Of a stretch of DNA of 64,000 nt, positions 7,086 to 64,000 are shown in pieces. The DNA comes from an uncultured Gammaproteobacteria bacterium (GTDB taxonomy: Bacteria; Patescibacteriota; Patescibacteriia; Magasanikbacterales; GWA2-37-8). Under the pieces are notes generated by a model, which saw nothing but the letters and a program-made list of their open reading frames with translations, was not told the DNA's origin and ran no database searches. A program made the position numbers and the translations under genes. How positions within the stretch are numbered: position 1 is the first letter of the stretch; each line of letters opens with the position of its first letter. The stretch lies in contig CAZBWU010000001.1 of the NCBI GenBank assembly GCA_964496095.1, positions 48,617 to 112,616 on the forward strand, read 5' to 3'.

Positions 7086-7592
7086 ATGAAAAATATACAC
7101 AGTGAAACTATTTTGGGAATCGATCCTGGTTTTGGCAGAGTCGGTTATGGAATAGTAAAAAAAGATGCCAAAGGCGAATGGAGAATGGTTGTTTTTGGTT
7201 GTATAGAAACTTCAGCCAAGAAAAGTTTTGTGGAGCGAATTGCCGAAATCCATGAAGAACTTGAGAAAATTATAAAAGAATATAAACCAACACGCATGGC
7301 TGTGGAGGAATTATTCTTCTTCAAGAATGTCAAAACCGCCATTGAGGTGGGGCAGGCGAGAGGGGTCATACTTCTCACCGGCGTAGAGAATCATTTGCCA
7401 ATAGACGAGTTTACACCTTTGCAGGTCAAGCAAGCGATTACCGGTTATGGACGAGCCGAAAAAGTCCAGATGCAAAAGGTAGTGAAGATGATTCTTGGAA
7501 TGAAAGAAGATATAAAATCAGATGATGCGGCTGATGCCTTGGCTGTGGCGCTCTGCGCTGGGCAGAGTTTGTGGATGAAAAATATTAAGTAG
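7086..7592 (+). CDS. ruvC: Crossover junction endodeoxyribonuclease RuvC
   Basis: ILGIDPGFGRVGYGIV is the RNase H-fold catalytic start. The 168-aa length is right and it follows yebC. Confidence 0.9.
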   Translation: MKNIHSETILGIDPGFGRVGYGIVKKDAKGEWRMVVFGCIETSAKKSFVERIAEIHEELEKIIKEYKPTRMAVEELFFFKNVKTAIEVGQARGVILLTGVENHLPIDEFTPLQVKQAITGYGRAEKVQMQKVVKMILGMKEDIKSDDAADALAVALCAGQSLWMKNIK

Positions 7593-7684
7593 GCTTATTA
7601 ATTATTTTAAATTTCTTAACTCCAAAAATTTGGGGTTAATTTTTATATTTTGTTTAAGATTAGCCAAAATAATTCAACTAACTA

Positions 7685-7713
7685 TTGACAAAACAGGTAA
7701 ATTGTGATATATT
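7685..7713 (+). promoter_or_regulatory. Near-consensus sigma70 promoter (TTGACA-N17-TATATT)
   Basis: TTGACA at 7685-7690, a 17-nt spacer and TATATT at 7708-7713. It sits directly upstream of the GC-rich island and its ORF. Confidence 0.55.
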
Positions 7714-7796
7714 TATCGGTCGTGCGAAGTGCAAAAGCGTACCCGAATGGGTTGCTAGCCTATCGTATTACACAACCTTTGTCGTAGGAGTTTCCA

Positions 7797-8111
7797 GTGA
7801 ACATTCGTCAGATTCTCGTTACGGTCGGGATGTTCTTTATTCTCGCTCTCGGCCTGGCCAGTCGCGTGGTGCTGGTCATCATCGTCGAAGGAAAACCGAT
7901 GATGACCAATCTGCAACAATCCCCGAGGGTCATCGAGCTGAGTTGGCCGTACCGCGTGGCGGTGACGTCCGTGGTGAACGCCAGTATCAGGTGCTGGGAT
8001 GTGGACGGTCATGTTGATTTGTTCCCCCCAGATGACTCGCTATGGGTAGTGCAGTGTTATTACTCATATGGGACGTCACGTTGTTGCCAGCGACGGAGAG
8101 ATGGGTTGTAG
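7797..8111 (+). CDS. Small Cys-rich protein with an N-terminal membrane/signal segment, encoded in a GC-rich island (putative horizontally acquired gene)
   Basis: GTG start is preceded by AGGAG at -12 to -8. A 104-codon ORF has strongly GC-biased third positions (ctg, gtg, atc, ccg, gcc) unlike the rest of the window. The N-terminus is hydrophobic (ILVTVGMFFILALGLASRVVLVIIV) and the C-terminal part carries 5 Cys. The same DNA could alternatively be a structured RNA. Confidence 0.4.
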   Translation: MNIRQILVTVGMFFILALGLASRVVLVIIVEGKPMMTNLQQSPRVIELSWPYRVAVTSVVNASIRCWDVDGHVDLFPPDDSLWVVQCYYSYGTSRCCQRRRDGL

Positions 8112-8195
8112 TTGTGCGGGGCTTTCGCGTCCCGCCCCCGTTCTATATACGTCATGAATTGGTGTTTAGAGAACGGGTTTTTAGTTTATATTTTT

Positions 8196-8795
8196 TTAAT
8201 TTTGAGGGCTCCCTTCAGTAGTTTGTTTCAATTTTTTAAACGGAATTTTCATAGCGCTCTTAAGTTGGAAATAAAACATTAATGCAAAAAACTTTTTGAT
8301 GAGTAGGTATGATATATATGCGCTTCTGGTAATAATAAATTGTAATAATCGTAGTACAATATTAGCCGCATATTCTACATTTTCATGTTTCAAACATACT
8401 TTGGAATCAAGACGTAGTCTTGTCCCTCCCTCAATAGGTGAAAGTGTATAAAGATCATAAGTAATAGTTTGAAACCAGGTATTTTTGCCAGCACCTGATT
8501 CAAGTTCTAATAAAAAGGGTGGATTATATTGGGTGATAATCCCGTTTATTATAACGGTTATTGACTCTGTGTTTGTGTCTTGAGTCGGACCAATTTTTGT
8601 ATACTTAGTAAACTCGGCGCCAACCCCCGGTTTTCCCTTGTATTCTATTGTAGCTTTAGAGGAGGTCTGTCCCAAGTATTCAAAACTACCCCAAATTGTA
8701 ATCTTGTCTGGATCAACAAGATAAGGAAAAATTACTTCTGGTGAAGCGTGTATATCAATTTCAAAAGAGAGTTTTATAAATGGTTTTGATTCCAT
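8196..8795 (-). CDS. SRPBCC-fold (AHSA1/polyketide cyclase-like) domain protein with a C-terminal hydrophobic tail
   Basis: The ORF shows weak resemblance to the SRPBCC ligand-binding fold and no catalytic motifs. Confidence 0.35.
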   Translation of the reverse strand: MESKPFIKLSFEIDIHASPEVIFPYLVDPDKITIWGSFEYLGQTSSKATIEYKGKPGVGAEFTKYTKIGPTQDTNTESITVIINGIITQYNPPFLLELESGAGKNTWFQTITYDLYTLSPIEGGTRLRLDSKVCLKHENVEYAANIVLRLLQFIITRSAYISYLLIKKFFALMFYFQLKSAMKIPFKKLKQTTEGSPQN

Positions 8796-10486: not shown

Positions 10487-10648
10487 CTGTCATCCCGAGG
10501 GTTACGCCCGAGGGATCTCTGTCCCAACTGTCATTCCCGCCACAGCGGGAATCCAGACAATTTAATTGGACGCTGGATACCCGATCAGGTCGGGGATTAC
10601 AACGACGAACGAACTGGACAGAGATTCCTCCTTTGTCGTCGGAATGAC
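10487..10648. repeat. Cluster of short palindromic interspersed repeats (GTCATyC...GAATGAC family), at least 3 units in both orientations
   Basis: Units ctgtcatcccgagggttacgcccgagggatctctgtcc, ctgtcattcccgccacagcgggaatccagaca and an inverted unit ending ggaatgacaa. Related units recur at 33832, 37916, 59113 and 63484. Confidence 0.75.
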
Positions 10649-10659
10649 AATAAAAAATT

Positions 10660-26715: not shown

Positions 26716-26984
26716 AATTTAATCCACCTTTTGTAACCAAAAGCATATTAGTTAGACCCTTTCTTTAGAAGAAAGGGCAAAAAGAAGCGCGAGCTAGTAA
26801 AATTACTCGGAGCCAGACAGGACTTCTCCTCACTTCCGCCCTGAACTCGCCTGCGGTCTCAAACAGCAGGGCGGATTCTTTTGAAGAACCGCTCAGGTTC
26901 GTCTCTGTCTGCTACCTCCTAATTTCAAGGCTCGCACGGACAGTTCGGATAGACGAAAGTCGTCGTTGTCTGTGCGAGCCTTGG
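26716..26984 (-). ncRNA. Structured intergenic element, copy A (candidate 5' leader of gatB). It is listed on the strand of gatB.
   Basis: A palindromic hairpin cttttg-taac-caaaag is followed by a roughly 220-nt core. Copy B (51267-51487) has the same core. Stem regions differ by compensatory changes. Both copies sit about 70 nt upstream of gatB or proS and in the same sense as the gene. Confidence 0.4.
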
Positions 26985-27307
26985 AAAAACGAAGTTTAAA
27001 TTTAGAGATGAGTTTTAGTGTTCGCCCAGCCCGCTCTTGCGGGGCTGGGGAAATTTTCAATTGTTTGAGACAGCTTTTTATAGAAAAGCTGTTGAGTTTT
27101 GAAAATTAACTAAAATGAGGTCTAAATTTTCTGAGTTTTTCCATTGTGAGCGCTTCTTTCTTTTGCTTTCTTCTAAAGAAAGCAAAAAGTAATTTGATTT
27201 TTGTTTACAAAAGGTGAAATTTAGATTTCTTCTAAAGAAGTAGAAAAAAAGTTTATTTAAAAAAACCTCGATCAATGTCGAAGTTTTTTTGTGAAAGATT
27301 TAGAAAA

Positions 27308-33831: not shown

Positions 33832-33917
33832 TGCCATCCTGAAGGGTTAACACCCTGAAGGATCTCTGCCTTAATCACCGTCGGACAGAGATTCTTCGCT
33901 TTGCTCAGAATGACAGG
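33832..33917. repeat. Short palindromic interspersed repeat units (same family as 10487-10648)
   Basis: gccatcctgaagggttaacaccctgaaggatctctgcc followed by an inverted unit gacagagattcttcgctttgctcagaatgacagg. Confidence 0.7.
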
Positions 33918-33954
33918 TAGTAATAAGTGTAGTGTACCTATATTTACCTGAAAA

Positions 33955-37857: not shown

Positions 37858-37915
37858 ATGTAAATTATTATTAAATAAGTAATAGTATTATAGAAGTAAA
37901 AAACTATTTAGTCAA

Positions 37916-38016
37916 TTGTCATTCTGAGTGAAACGAGGAATCTCTGTCGGGATAATTTAAAATTGACAGGGATCCTTAACGGAGTTTATCCCCTTTAGGG
38001 GGTTCAGGATGACAGT
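37916..38016. repeat. Short palindromic interspersed repeat units (GTCATTC family)
   Basis: ttgtcattctgagtgaaacgaggaatctctgtc followed by an inverted unit ending caggatgacag. Confidence 0.7.
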
Positions 38017-51047: not shown

Positions 51048-51490
51048 TTTAATCCACCTTTTGTAACCAAAAGCTGGAGGGAAAAGTTTCCGAGACAGAT
51101 GAAACAGATAAGATAGTTTGGGATTCGCCGTCACTCTGGTTGTGAACTCAACCACCTTTCTATAAAAGGTGGTCTCAAACAGCACAACCAGTCCCAGTAA
51201 GCCGTAAAAGCGGCTTACTGGCGACCGTTCCGTCTCATCTCCAAATTATAAACTTACTGTTTCATACGCTCGGACAGACAACCGCCGTTGTCCGTGCGAG
51301 CCTTGAAATTACGAGGCAAGCAGACAGAGACGAGCTGGAGCGGTTCTTCAAAAGAATCCGCCCTGCTGTTTGAGTCCGCCCGAGGCGGATGAGTTCAGGG
51401 CGGAAGTGAGGGTGAGGCCTGTCTGGCTCCGAGTAATTTCACTAGCTCGCGCTTCTTGTTTACTTCTTGTAAAGAAGTAAAGTAAGATGT
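51048..51490 (+). ncRNA. Structured intergenic element, copy B (candidate 5' leader of proS)
   Basis: Hairpin taatccacc-CTTTTG-taac-CAAAAG at 51050-51074. The core at 51267-51487 is homologous to the reverse complement of 26759-26984, with compensatory substitutions in stems. It ends about 65 nt before the proS start codon. Confidence 0.4.
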
Positions 51491-59101: not shown

Positions 59102-59112
59102 ATTGTTCGTAA

Positions 59113-59298
59113 CTGTCATTCTGAGTAAAGCGAAGAATCCCTGTCTGTACAATTGTCATTCCGACCGAAGTGGAGGAATCCCTTAAACAAGGTATTTGCA
59201 TGTACATAGTATAAGGGATCCCTCGACGGAGTTTATACCCTTTAGGGTGCTCGGGATGACAAACGGACAGAGATCCTTCATTTCATTCAGGATGACAA
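59113..59298. repeat. Cluster of short palindromic interspersed repeats filling the carA-carB spacer
   Basis: ctgtcattctgagtaaagcgaagaatccctgtctg, ttgtcattccgaccgaagtggaggaatccc, and inverted units (ggtgctcgggatgacaaacggacagagatcc, cattcaggatgacaac). Confidence 0.75.
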
Positions 59299-62699: not shown

Positions 62700-63060
62700 A
62701 AAATTGTAAGGTTGTCGAGTGGTGTCCATGACACCTGGTCCCCAGGATATCGCGACGGTCGCGATGTTCGTGGATACCACTGGTAACTTTCTCGGTTGGG
62801 GGATCCCATGTTTATTCGGAATCCAAGGCTTGATATTGAAGAGACGGCAGCTGTACAGGCCACTCAACAGGATGGCGTCGGCCTTCTGTTGCCAAATGTG
62901 GCAAAGCCGCCTCCGGTTGAGGAGAGTATGCCGTCCTCCGAGCCCGGGCGCTGGCACGGGGTCGATCCGTTCGAGCTGAAGAAGTAGCCTTCTGGGTTTG
63001 TTGCCCTGAGGCAAGAATAGTAGTTCTTAGTAGTTGTTCTTTTTTCCGCCAACTCCGGGC
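62700..63060 (+). other. GC-rich, hairpin-dense island of unknown nature (structured RNA or a degraded foreign gene)
   Basis: Local GC is far above the surrounding roughly 35%. It has many perfect short hairpins (GGTGTC/GACACC, ATCGCGAC/GTCGCGAT, TTGCCA/TGGCAA, CTCC/GGAG) and no convincing long ORF. The longest + ORF is 63 aa (62796-62987). It is bounded by terminators at 62658-62690 and 63166-63200. Confidence 0.35.
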
Positions 63061-63165
63061 GGTATAAATATTCGGAGCAAGGAGTAGTCATGAAAATGAT
63101 TCGTGCGCCACACACGTCAAAGTGGCATCTCAATTTGTGTATAAGTTATTTTGTACACAAATAAG

Positions 63166-63200
63166 GCAAAAAACTGTTCGAACAATCGAACGGTTTTTTG
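63166..63200 (+). terminator. Rho-independent terminator closing the island 2 transcription unit
   Basis: AAAAAACTGTTCGAAC-aat-CGAACGG followed by TTTTTTG. Confidence 0.6.
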
Positions 63201-63254: not shown

Positions 63255-64000
63255 ATGATTAATTTTCAATCAGAATTAAACCAAGAACAATTAGAACCAG
63301 TTTTGCACGGCGACGGGCCGTGTTTAGTTTTGGCTGGAGCTGGAAGCGGTAAGACAAGAGTTATTACCTATCGGGTGGCTTATTTGTTAGAGCAGGGAAT
63401 TAATCCGGAAAATATATTGTTAGTCACTTTTACCAACAAAGCTGCGGATGAAATGAAACGCAGAGTTGAGAAGTTGACGACACTGTCTGTCATTCCCGCT
63501 ACAGCGGGAATCCAGACAACCGTACACTGGATTCCCAATCAAGTTGGGAATGACAAAAGTGTAAAACTGCCTTGGGCAGGCACTTTTCATCATATCGCTT
63601 ATCGTATTTTACGAATTTATGCGCCGATTTTGGGCTACAAAAATAACTTTTCAGTACTAGATAGCGATGATAGTGAGACTATTTTGAAACTCTGTGCCAA
63701 GCCATTCAAATCAGATACTGGTCGGGTCAAGTTTCCTTCGGCGCGGGTTTTACAATCAATTATTAGTTTTGCGCGTAATTCAGAAACCACAATTGATAGC
63801 GTACTAGATCTCAAACATCCGCAATGGCAAATTTTTAGCGACAATATAAAAACGATTGCTCGTGAGTATGAACAAAAAAAGAAGGAAGCCAATGTGATGG
63901 ATTTTGATGATTTGTTGGTAAATTTTTTGTTGCTACTTAATCATGAACCAGCATTAAAAAAATATGCCGAGCAGTTCAAATATATTTTGGTAGACGAGTA
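63255..64000 (+). CDS. ATP-dependent DNA helicase, UvrD/PcrA/Rep family (N-terminal part; continues beyond the window)
   Basis: Helicase motifs: Walker A LVLAGAGSGKTRVITYRVAYL, Ia LLVTFTNKAADEM, then GTFH, and motif II ILVDEYQ at the window edge. The frame is open to position 64000. Confidence 0.9.
   Translation, partial: MINFQSELNQEQLEPVLHGDGPCLVLAGAGSGKTRVITYRVAYLLEQGINPENILLVTFTNKAADEMKRRVEKLTTLSVIPATAGIQTTVHWIPNQVGNDKSVKLPWAGTFHHIAYRILRIYAPILGYKNNFSVLDSDDSETILKLCAKPFKSDTGRVKFPSARVLQSIISFARNSETTIDSVLDLKHPQWQIFSDNIKTIAREYEQKKKEANVMDFDDLLVNFLLLLNHEPALKKYAEQFKYILVDE
63484..63556. repeat. Palindromic interspersed repeat unit inserted in-frame within the helicase CDS
   Basis: tgtctgtcattcccgctacagcgggaatccagacaa...gggaatgacaaa lies inside the open reading frame. 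It adds about 25 aa (SVIPATAGIQTTVHWIPNQVGNDKS) between helicase motif Ia and the GTFH motif without a stop or frameshift. Confidence 0.7.

Follow-up and report, generated by a model that had tools for sequence, protein, structure and literature searches.

What accounts for a short stretch of GC-rich DNA immediately downstream of ruvC in a genome that is otherwise rich in AT: a gene of foreign origin, the relic of one, a structured RNA, or an error of assembly? The stretch lies within a 64-kb window (by which we mean the whole segment of DNA that was analysed) whose GC content is 0.384, versus 0.55 to 0.58 at positions 7720 to 8150. In 200-nt windows, the profile climbs from 0.32 at 7600 to 0.565 to 0.58 over 7801 to 8150 and is back at 0.30 to 0.37 by 8200, which bears out an earlier description of the region, made from its letters alone (hereafter, the sequence-only reading), as a GC-rich island in AT-rich DNA. 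The same reading called it the compositionally most anomalous part of the window: the island does reach the highest GC of the window, but the segment from 62751 to 63000 nearly ties with it at 0.575. Of the two interpretations then offered, a small protein (secreted or membrane bound) acquired by horizontal transfer and a structured RNA, the former has held up and the latter has not. The protein interpretation agrees with the foreign composition and codon usage, the coding-type distribution of GC over the three codon positions, a Shine-Dalgarno (SD) site with a GTG start, a predicted N-terminal anchor, and the absence of the island from the corresponding slot in close relatives. We regard positions 7685 to 8182 as probably, although far from certainly, a self-contained and strain-specific gene cassette of foreign origin situated in a hypervariable slot (Table 1).

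Table 1. Features of the ruvC 3′ flank, in order of position within the window
Feature	Position	Strand	Details
ruvC, left border of the slot	7086..7592	+	Pfam RuvC, E = 1.6e-47
Terminator-like hairpin and T-run closing ruvC	7616..7649	+	10-bp stem, 4-nt loop, then TTTTTATATT
Sigma-70-type promoter, extended -10	7685..7713	+	TTGACA (7685-7690), 17-nt spacer, TGaTATATT
Predicted 5′ untranslated leader, ~77 nt	7720..7796	+	GC-rich DNA starts here; GC 0.48
SD-like AGGAG	7786..7790	+	6 nt 5′ of the GTG at 7797
104-codon ORF, GTG start, TAG stop (8109-8111)	7797..8111	+	GC1/2/3 (GC at codon positions 1, 2, and 3) 0.56/0.41/0.67
Perfect 12-bp hairpin, 12-nt loop	7873..7908	+	Spans codons 26-38 of the ORF
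Weak RCC1-like blade resemblance	7974..8057	+	Codons 60-87 (VNASIRCWDVDGHVDLFPPDDSLWVVQC)
GC-rich hairpin GCGGGGC / GCGUCCCGC	8116..8135	+	Directly 3′ of the stop; in MFE and centroid structures
Terminator-like hairpin CCCGTTCTATATAC / GTTTAGAGAACGGG, then TTTTT	8137..8182	+	Local z = -2.2
START/SRPBCC-like gene, 199 aa, convergent, right border of the slot	8196..8795	-	Weak Pfam matches to Polyketide_cyc2 and AHSA1

The island is bordered by conserved genes. Upstream lie yebC and ruvC, the latter recognized in the sequence-only reading and confirmed by its Pfam match, and homology with relatives stops at the ruvC stop codon. On the other side, the START-like gene has homologs that are 70 to 82% identical and that keep their synteny with ruvC. 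Between these borders, close relatives (those whose ruvC DNA is 88 to 91% identical) contain other sequences: L001 has a 249-aa orphan gene; L048, L049, and L050 encode a 180-aa HAD-family hydrolase; and L051 has a spacer of ~657 bp with a 62-codon CxxC ORF (read by eye). The more distant L002/L003 (RuvC 83%) have a gene for a long secreted repeat protein at this position. In sum, the slot running from ruvC to the START-like gene has five different cargos in close relatives, and the island is missing from it in L001, L002/L003, L048 to L050, and L051. Since each relative presents a different cargo, the 3′ flank of ruvC is, within this lineage, a hotspot of gene turnover. The orphan gene of L001 and the HAD genes of L048/L049 are host-like in both GC (0.33 to 0.39) and a CAI-like index of codon usage (0.71 to 0.73), and, of the cargos measured, that in our window alone is foreign in composition.

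No mobility signature was recognized at the slot: neither an integrase nor another mobility gene adjoins it, no tRNA is nearby, and the repeats at its borders are weak and AT-rich only. A MITE or other insertion element was rejected on account of the absence of terminal inverted repeats and of a target duplication, as was an integron cassette, there being no attC-like core sites (by eye) and the unit having a promoter of its own. The slot in L051 shares with this one an identity of 12 nt (AGGAGTTTCCAG) that goes no further; ~0.03 such identities are expected by chance, and it was treated as fortuitous. Measured against what defines a horizontally acquired islet, the island displays the atypical composition and codon usage and the absence from relatives, without the signature of mobility.

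The putative cassette carries signals of its own for transcription and translation. The promoter that had been claimed, TTGACA-N17-TATATT, is present and matches the consensus at 11 of 12 positions, with its -10 hexamer at 7708 to 7713 and, in addition, a TG one base upstream. Sites of at least 11/12 occur eight times in the 64 kb, counting both strands, versus 2.75 ± 1.7 times in block shuffles (an enrichment of ~3-fold), and the site at 7685 is alone among them in having the TG of an extended -10. Transcription from it would start at ~7719 to 7722. The predicted leader that follows has no codon phase bias and folds in an ordinary manner (z = -0.73), and the AGGAG near its end was found exactly where, and at the distance from the GTG that, the sequence-only reading had placed it. 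Downstream of the ORF, the hairpin at 8137 to 8182 has the form of a terminator on the plus strand only, and there is no minus-strand promoter-like site within 7685 to 8200. This arrangement, in which a promoter and a plus-strand terminator bracket the ORF exactly and an SD site stands at the ideal spacing from the first start codon, suggests a self-contained cassette.

The 104-aa ORF itself is present as claimed, and so is its bias toward GC at the third codon position (Table 1). The difference between GC3 and GC2 in this frame, the only one with a coding signature, is significant by permutation (p = 1e-4), with G prevailing at the first codon position and T at the second. Values of 56/41/67 for GC1/2/3, in combination with these base preferences, are what Muto-Osawa trends lead one to expect of genes whose genome has ~55% GC. 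An even GC3 across frames had been named beforehand as a sign against coding; it is clearly absent, and the unevenness that is observed favors coding. The codons said to dominate the ORF do so in part: GTG occurs nine times, CTG, ATC, GTC, and GAT four times each, and CCG three times, but GCC is found only twice. The GC3 signal, strong between 7797 and 8010, vanishes across the final 34 codons of the ORF, where GC1/2/3 is flat (0.52/0.47/0.50).

The length of the ORF is uninformative, given that 27% of the dinucleotide shuffles of the island yield an ORF of at least 104 aa. Two further frames, of 110 and 85 codons, are open in the island, and these resemble what a GC-rich gene yields when translated off frame, one being rich in Arg, Ser, and Gly and the other in His and Asp. 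Automatic gene callers picked the 110-aa frame, which overlaps the 104-codon ORF and starts inside the promoter; the public gene calls at this locus, which specify that frame, are wrong. The 104-aa frame, whose peptides include VIELSWPYR and CWDVDGHVDLFPPDDSLWVVQCYYSYGTSR, combines several elements of a protein-coding gene: a start codon, a ribosome-binding site, an open frame, and asymmetry among codon positions.

Set against the genes around it, the ORF is foreign in several respects. The long ORFs of the host (n = 52) have GC1/2/3 of 0.49/0.34/0.34, and an SD-like AGGA, GGAG, or GAGG 4 to 12 nt upstream of the start occurs in none of the 52, such that AGGAG-N6-GTG is alien to this genome, in keeping with an import of the SD site along with its gene. 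When a CAI-like index is trained on host genes, the ORF scores 0.571, which is under the values of all 52 host genes (0.639 to 0.817). The host genome is AT-rich, apparently makes no use of SD sites, and is probably Patescibacteria-like; because of this apparent lack of SD use and the poor match in codons, efficient translation of the ORF is doubtful.

Translated, the ORF begins with MNIR, right after which comes a hydrophobic block of 25 residues (residues 6 to 30; mean Kyte-Doolittle value of 2.66); among 20,000 residue shuffles, only 6 equal it. The hydrophobic N terminus noted from the sequence is therefore real, and a basic N terminus ahead of 15 or more hydrophobic residues is the pattern of proteins that are exported by Sec or anchored in the membrane. 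A signal-peptidase site may follow GLA21 (G-L-A, then S), as judged by eye. The “Cys-rich C-terminal domain” of the sequence-only reading does contain cysteines, but their number is modest, at four (C66, C87, C96, and C97). Predicted by AF2 from the single sequence, the structure has low confidence (pLDDT 61) and consists of a helix at residues 3 to 21 and seven strands, the C-terminal part, with its four Cys, being β-rich. A Foldseek comparison of this model with the PDB produced no fold match, as expected for a model of such low confidence.

Searches for relatives of the protein returned very little. The 104-aa translation has no match in a word-index search of 5.8 billion clusters, in which the 110-aa frame retrieves itself alone, as a one-member cluster present on three contigs. 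Searches of Pfam (E ≤ 1), NCBIfam, PHROGs, and PDB sequences gave no match for the ORF, blastn of the island against plasmids and phages gave none either, and scans of viral contigs and JGI metagenomes with peptides of the ORF detected no relatives; no literature turned up for the accessions of the assembly and the run. Nothing in these results marks the protein as a toxin, bacteriocin, or signal, functions that the sequence-only reading had considered. An exhaustive phmmer search of 1.84 billion representatives recovered no relatives beyond a weak RCC1-like motif in two proteins, one of 7013 aa (E = 7.5e-8) and the other of 3132 aa (E = 4e-4). Both are encoded on a single 494-kb metagenomic contig of 60% GC and are made of RCC1_2 / WD40_RLD repeats; there is no nucleotide similarity between this contig and the island.

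The phmmer scores need to be read as sums, of 41 and 23 matches, respectively, to the same stretch of the query (residues 59 to 87), with individual matches reaching at most 9.6 bits each (E ≥ 1e5). Residue shuffles never come near the summed score (their maximum is 10.1 bits), so the resemblance depends on the order of the residues. With a blade HMM that was built independently of the query, the ORF scores 10.5 bits, a value equalled by 2 of 5000 shuffles, and HHalign against an alignment of 26 blades reports a probability of 33.8% (P = 4.3e-4) over 28 columns. The blade core shared within residues 60 to 87 consists of RCW, DG, PPDD, and V-Q. Of the 11 invariant or near-invariant columns of the blade (the invariants include C13, T16, C23, W24, G25, and P34), 5 are matched (C66, W67, P77, P78, and Q86); the invariant Gly that follows Cys-Trp is replaced by D68, and further invariant positions are absent. 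The alignment extends over one blade only (residues 46 to 97), rather than over several in tandem. The evidence is one short motif drawn from a huge database by a score summed over repeats, Pfam gives no match, and a propeller takes more than one blade to close. The RCC1-like resemblance is best viewed as a lead, which falls short of indicating family membership.

As regards a structured RNA, both pairings claimed for the region exist, but they differ in weight. The arms of the near hairpin (TGGTCATCATCG / CGATGATGACCA, at 7873-7884 / 7897-7908) are 12 nt long, not 11 as first counted, and a hairpin of this length is reached in 0 of 1000 dinucleotide shuffles; it sits between the segments encoding the hydrophobic block and the β-rich part, and no T-run follows it. 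The distal 9-nt pair (GTGACGTCC / GGACGTCAC, at 7962-7970 / 8071-8079) is not significant, with ~0.35 such pairs expected by chance on simple counting. Scans with the hairpin arms returned 31 matches in metagenomes and 2 in viral sequences, each an unrelated palindrome arisen by chance, and revealed no recurring element.

Taken as a whole, the 436-nt body has an MFE of -159.7 kcal/mol, versus -152.0 ± 5.6 for shuffles (z = -1.37), on the plus strand, and a z of -0.47 on the reverse strand. In 120-nt sliding windows, z is near -3 only where the 12-bp hairpin falls, and is -2.2 at the terminator. Three other GC-rich intergenic stretches of the same window served as controls, with z = -4.67 at 62700 to 63030, -5.4 and -6.2 on the two strands at 26745 to 27060, and -8.7 and -8.05 on the two strands at 51075 to 51470. 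The focal island stays near its shuffles while the controls fold far better, which marks it as GC-rich without being structured. Rfam 15 yielded nothing at the gathering score, and at E ≤ 10 the island was assigned to no family, its best score being 17 bits against a cut-off of 102.9; a permissive Rfam scan of the whole window added nothing relevant, and ARAGORN identified no tmRNA or tRNA at the island. According to the sequence-only reading, a lack of protein homologs along with an Rfam assignment would favor RNA; homologs are indeed lacking, but so is the assignment. The island has neither of two marks of a structured RNA family, a covariance-model match and a folding energy clearly below that of shuffles. 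More generally, composition is a poor guide to RNA genes in this window, where structured islands at 26.7 kb, 51.1 kb, and 62.7 kb have no Rfam match.

We propose that the cassette works as follows. Having come from a GC-rich, SD-using source, it would be transcribed from the host-type extended -10 promoter into an RNA of ~460 nt starting near 7720, on which AGGAG-N6-GTG would direct the translation of a 104-residue protein. The basic MNIR and the 25-residue hydrophobic stretch would act as a Sec signal or membrane anchor, placing the β-rich, four-Cys C-terminal part of ~70 to 80 residues outside the cell, and the transcript would end at the hairpin and T-run at 8137 to 8177. Any role at the surface or in interactions would likewise be putative. 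Several observations sit uneasily with a functional gene, namely, the lack of homologs apart from the RCC1-like motif, the fading of GC3 in the last 34 codons, the doubtful efficiency of translation in this host, the low pLDDT of the AF2 model and its lack of a fold match, the uninformative ORF length, the preference of automatic callers for the 110-aa frame, and the 12-bp hairpin inside the ORF, for which coding does not account.

Some of these same observations would suit a decaying relic, a less probable reading and the main rival, in which the island is coding DNA from a GC-rich donor that retains an ancestral coding signature but has no functional product today and whose transcription, if any, is incidental. 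Such DNA perhaps represents the 5′ end of a larger gene, e.g., of an RCC1-like repeat protein, inserted into a recombination-prone slot. Its status as a singleton without relatives, the decay of GC3 in the last third of the ORF, the presence of approximately one partial blade where folding of the repeat takes several, the mismatch of codons and SD site with the host, and the fast turnover of the slot are all in keeping with decay. A random fragment, however, would rarely amount to a complete unit (SD start, N-terminal anchor, and stop) with a strong promoter of host type and a terminator framing it exactly, and the frame with the coding signature is interrupted by neither a frameshift nor an internal stop.

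The noncoding alternative posits that the promoter at 7685 drives a regulatory or dual-function RNA of ~460 nt in which the 12-bp hairpin is functional and the ORF incidental. We consider it unlikely: codon-phase asymmetry in GC and a hydrophobic block are not expected of a noncoding RNA, no Rfam family is found at E ≤ 10, and, with a global z of -1.37 (plus strand) or -0.47 (minus strand) and a single local window at -3, the island is far from the -4.7 to -8.7 of structured GC-rich islands in the same window. This is so despite a layout of promoter, GC-rich body, and terminator that RNA genes typically have when the genome is AT-rich, a hairpin that beats 1000 of 1000 shuffles, the lack of protein homologs, and the ease with which shuffles (27%) produce an ORF this long. 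Still more speculative, and to our minds improbable, is a gene recently captured from a donor rich in GC (which might be the cell on which this probable episymbiont lives) and domesticated under a native promoter in a genome otherwise devoid of SD sites, whose membrane-anchored product, a lone RCC1-like blade, would oligomerise into a surface propeller, with the 12-bp mRNA hairpin adding control at the RNA level. Finally, the abrupt change in composition and the absence of the segment from all relatives are also what a chimeric assembly would produce, by joining in GC-rich reads of another, contaminating organism. But the island and its junctions are 100% identical in three contigs (the longest of 457,569 bp) that were assembled separately and differ in source (NCBI GCA_013565595.1, Logan SRR10036081, and a further sample), and the AT-rich promoter and terminator join the GC-rich body seamlessly, leaving very little probability for such an artifact.

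The foreign cassette that we favor has counterparts among known systems, the closest being ORFan genes in flexible islets. As in these, the gene is strain specific and has atypical GC and codons, its syntenic flanks are conserved, and relatives contain alternative cargos; unlike these, the cassette is very small (~0.6 kb) and lacks a mobility signature, has its own promoter and terminator, and has no donor that was found. The blades of RCC1-like (RLD) propellers (PF13540 RCC1_2 / PF25390 WD40_RLD) have in common with it the blade core at residues 60 to 87, but the cassette matches at most one blade, has no Pfam match at E ≤ 1, and is missing the Gly after CW. Type I toxins (Hok, TisB, and Fst) are likewise small proteins with an N-terminal TM-like segment, their own promoter, a strong mRNA hairpin, and a strain-variable locus; in contrast, the product of the cassette, at 104 residues, is ~2 times their usual size and has a sizeable nonhydrophobic C-terminal part. 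A type I toxin-antitoxin system was rejected in view of this length (104 aa, versus less than ~60 aa for a toxin), the lack of a promoter-like site on the minus strand, and the lack of similarity to PHROGs or NCBIfam. The structured, GC-rich RNAs that AT-rich genomes encode (RNase P RNA, tmRNA, 6S, and large ncRNAs in Rfam) likewise come from intergenic GC-rich islands with a promoter and terminator, but the island beside ruvC has no covariance-model match, is not a tmRNA by ARAGORN, and has a folding energy like that of shuffles.

Most likely, then, the cassette is a fairly ordinary orphan accessory gene, a known kind of thing and possibly a relic. If expressed, it would give a reduced, probably symbiotic bacterium yet another small protein that is exported or at the surface and is specific to the strain; accessory genes of such organisms are thought to shape interactions between cells. 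Its foreign make-up (SD site, GTG start, and GC-rich codons) within a genome devoid of SD sites would, again if it is expressed, provide a clean marker of recent gene capture. By-products of the analysis are a corrected reading frame for the locus, a hotspot at the ruvC 3′ flank, and structured islands elsewhere in the window that are as yet unassigned.

As a candidate for a structured RNA, the GC-rich island at 62.7 kb surpasses the flagged GC-rich segment downstream of ruvC. Its neighbours are a 1064-aa gene on one side and a UvrD/PcrA-like helicase gene on the other, and its plus strand folds to -138.1 kcal/mol, against -114.0 ± 5.2 kcal/mol for shuffled sequences (z = -4.67), with the minus strand giving z = -2.86. 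A search of this island against Rfam matched no family, and a phage search with it likewise found no match. Downstream of the island, an AAGGAG-N5-ATG motif opens a 24-codon ORF; past this ORF, a terminator-like hairpin was seen by eye.

Features located in the window, with coordinates in the window
Feature	Coordinates	Strand	Remarks
Publicly annotated 110-aa ORF (protein P0003)	7685-8017	+	Loci L012, L013
GC-rich intergenic element	26718-27060		Folding z = -5.4 and -6.2 on the two strands
GC-rich intergenic element	51048-51470		Folding z = -8.7 and -8.05 on the two strands
Second GC-rich intergenic island	62700-63030, with 63080-63200 downstream	+	GC up to 0.575
Palindromic repeat copy	10528-10560
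Palindromic repeat copy	10620-10651
Palindromic repeat copy	33884-33926
Palindromic repeat copy	37913-37957
Palindromic repeat copy	59103-59183
Palindromic repeat copy	63487-63519

At the ruvC-side island, codon-phase statistics favour the 104-aa frame over the overlapping, annotated 110-aa frame, the TTG start of which is formed by the first three bases of the promoter -35 hexamer. Across the whole window, none of the 52 ORFs that reach 150 aa or more has a Shine-Dalgarno (SD)-like tetramer 4 to 12 nt before its start; because an estimated four to five would be expected by chance among these ORFs, the motif looks avoided, and initiation of translation in this genome apparently proceeds without SD pairing.

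The closest relatives (loci L001 to L003, on contigs CAYIJG010000019.1, CAZHYG010000004.1, and CAZLNR010000003.1) were deposited as "uncultured Gammaproteobacteria," labels that look like mis-assignments: the next relatives by RuvC are MAGs of Paceibacterota and Patescibacteria, and by its style the genome is AT-rich, lacks SD sites and consists of small genes. In a further relative, L051, the variable slot (L051 positions 795-1451) between ruvC and the convergent START-like gene holds an uncalled 62-codon ORF with a CxxC motif (MFGKKEHIWKLL...YRCTKCNQEMW...). On the opposite strand of this ORF, a 12-nt stretch, AGGAGTTTCCAG, is identical to one in the SD region of the flagged island, probably by chance.

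The two intergenic elements at 26.7 and 51.1 kb, both with extreme z-scores for folding on either strand, have in common a core of ~165 nt (26779-26942 and 51289-51460), which is inverted between them and 91 to 96% complementary, and each is preceded by an identical 27-nt sequence, TTTAATCCACCTTTTGTAACCAAAAGC, in direct orientation despite the inversion of the cores. Neither element found a match in Rfam or in a phage search. Possible readings are that the pair forms a palindromic mobile element, that both are RNA genes, or that they mark sites of inversion at a distance of 24.5 kb.

Short palindromic repeats that are rich in GC also occur in the window, in families with the sequences CTGTCATTCCCGC.ACAGCGGGAATCCAGACAA and TGTCATTCTGAG...GAATC. 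The copy at 63487 lies in frame within the helicase ORF, a likeness to the palindromic elements of the Rickettsia type, and the residues that it inserts include SVIPATAGIQ.
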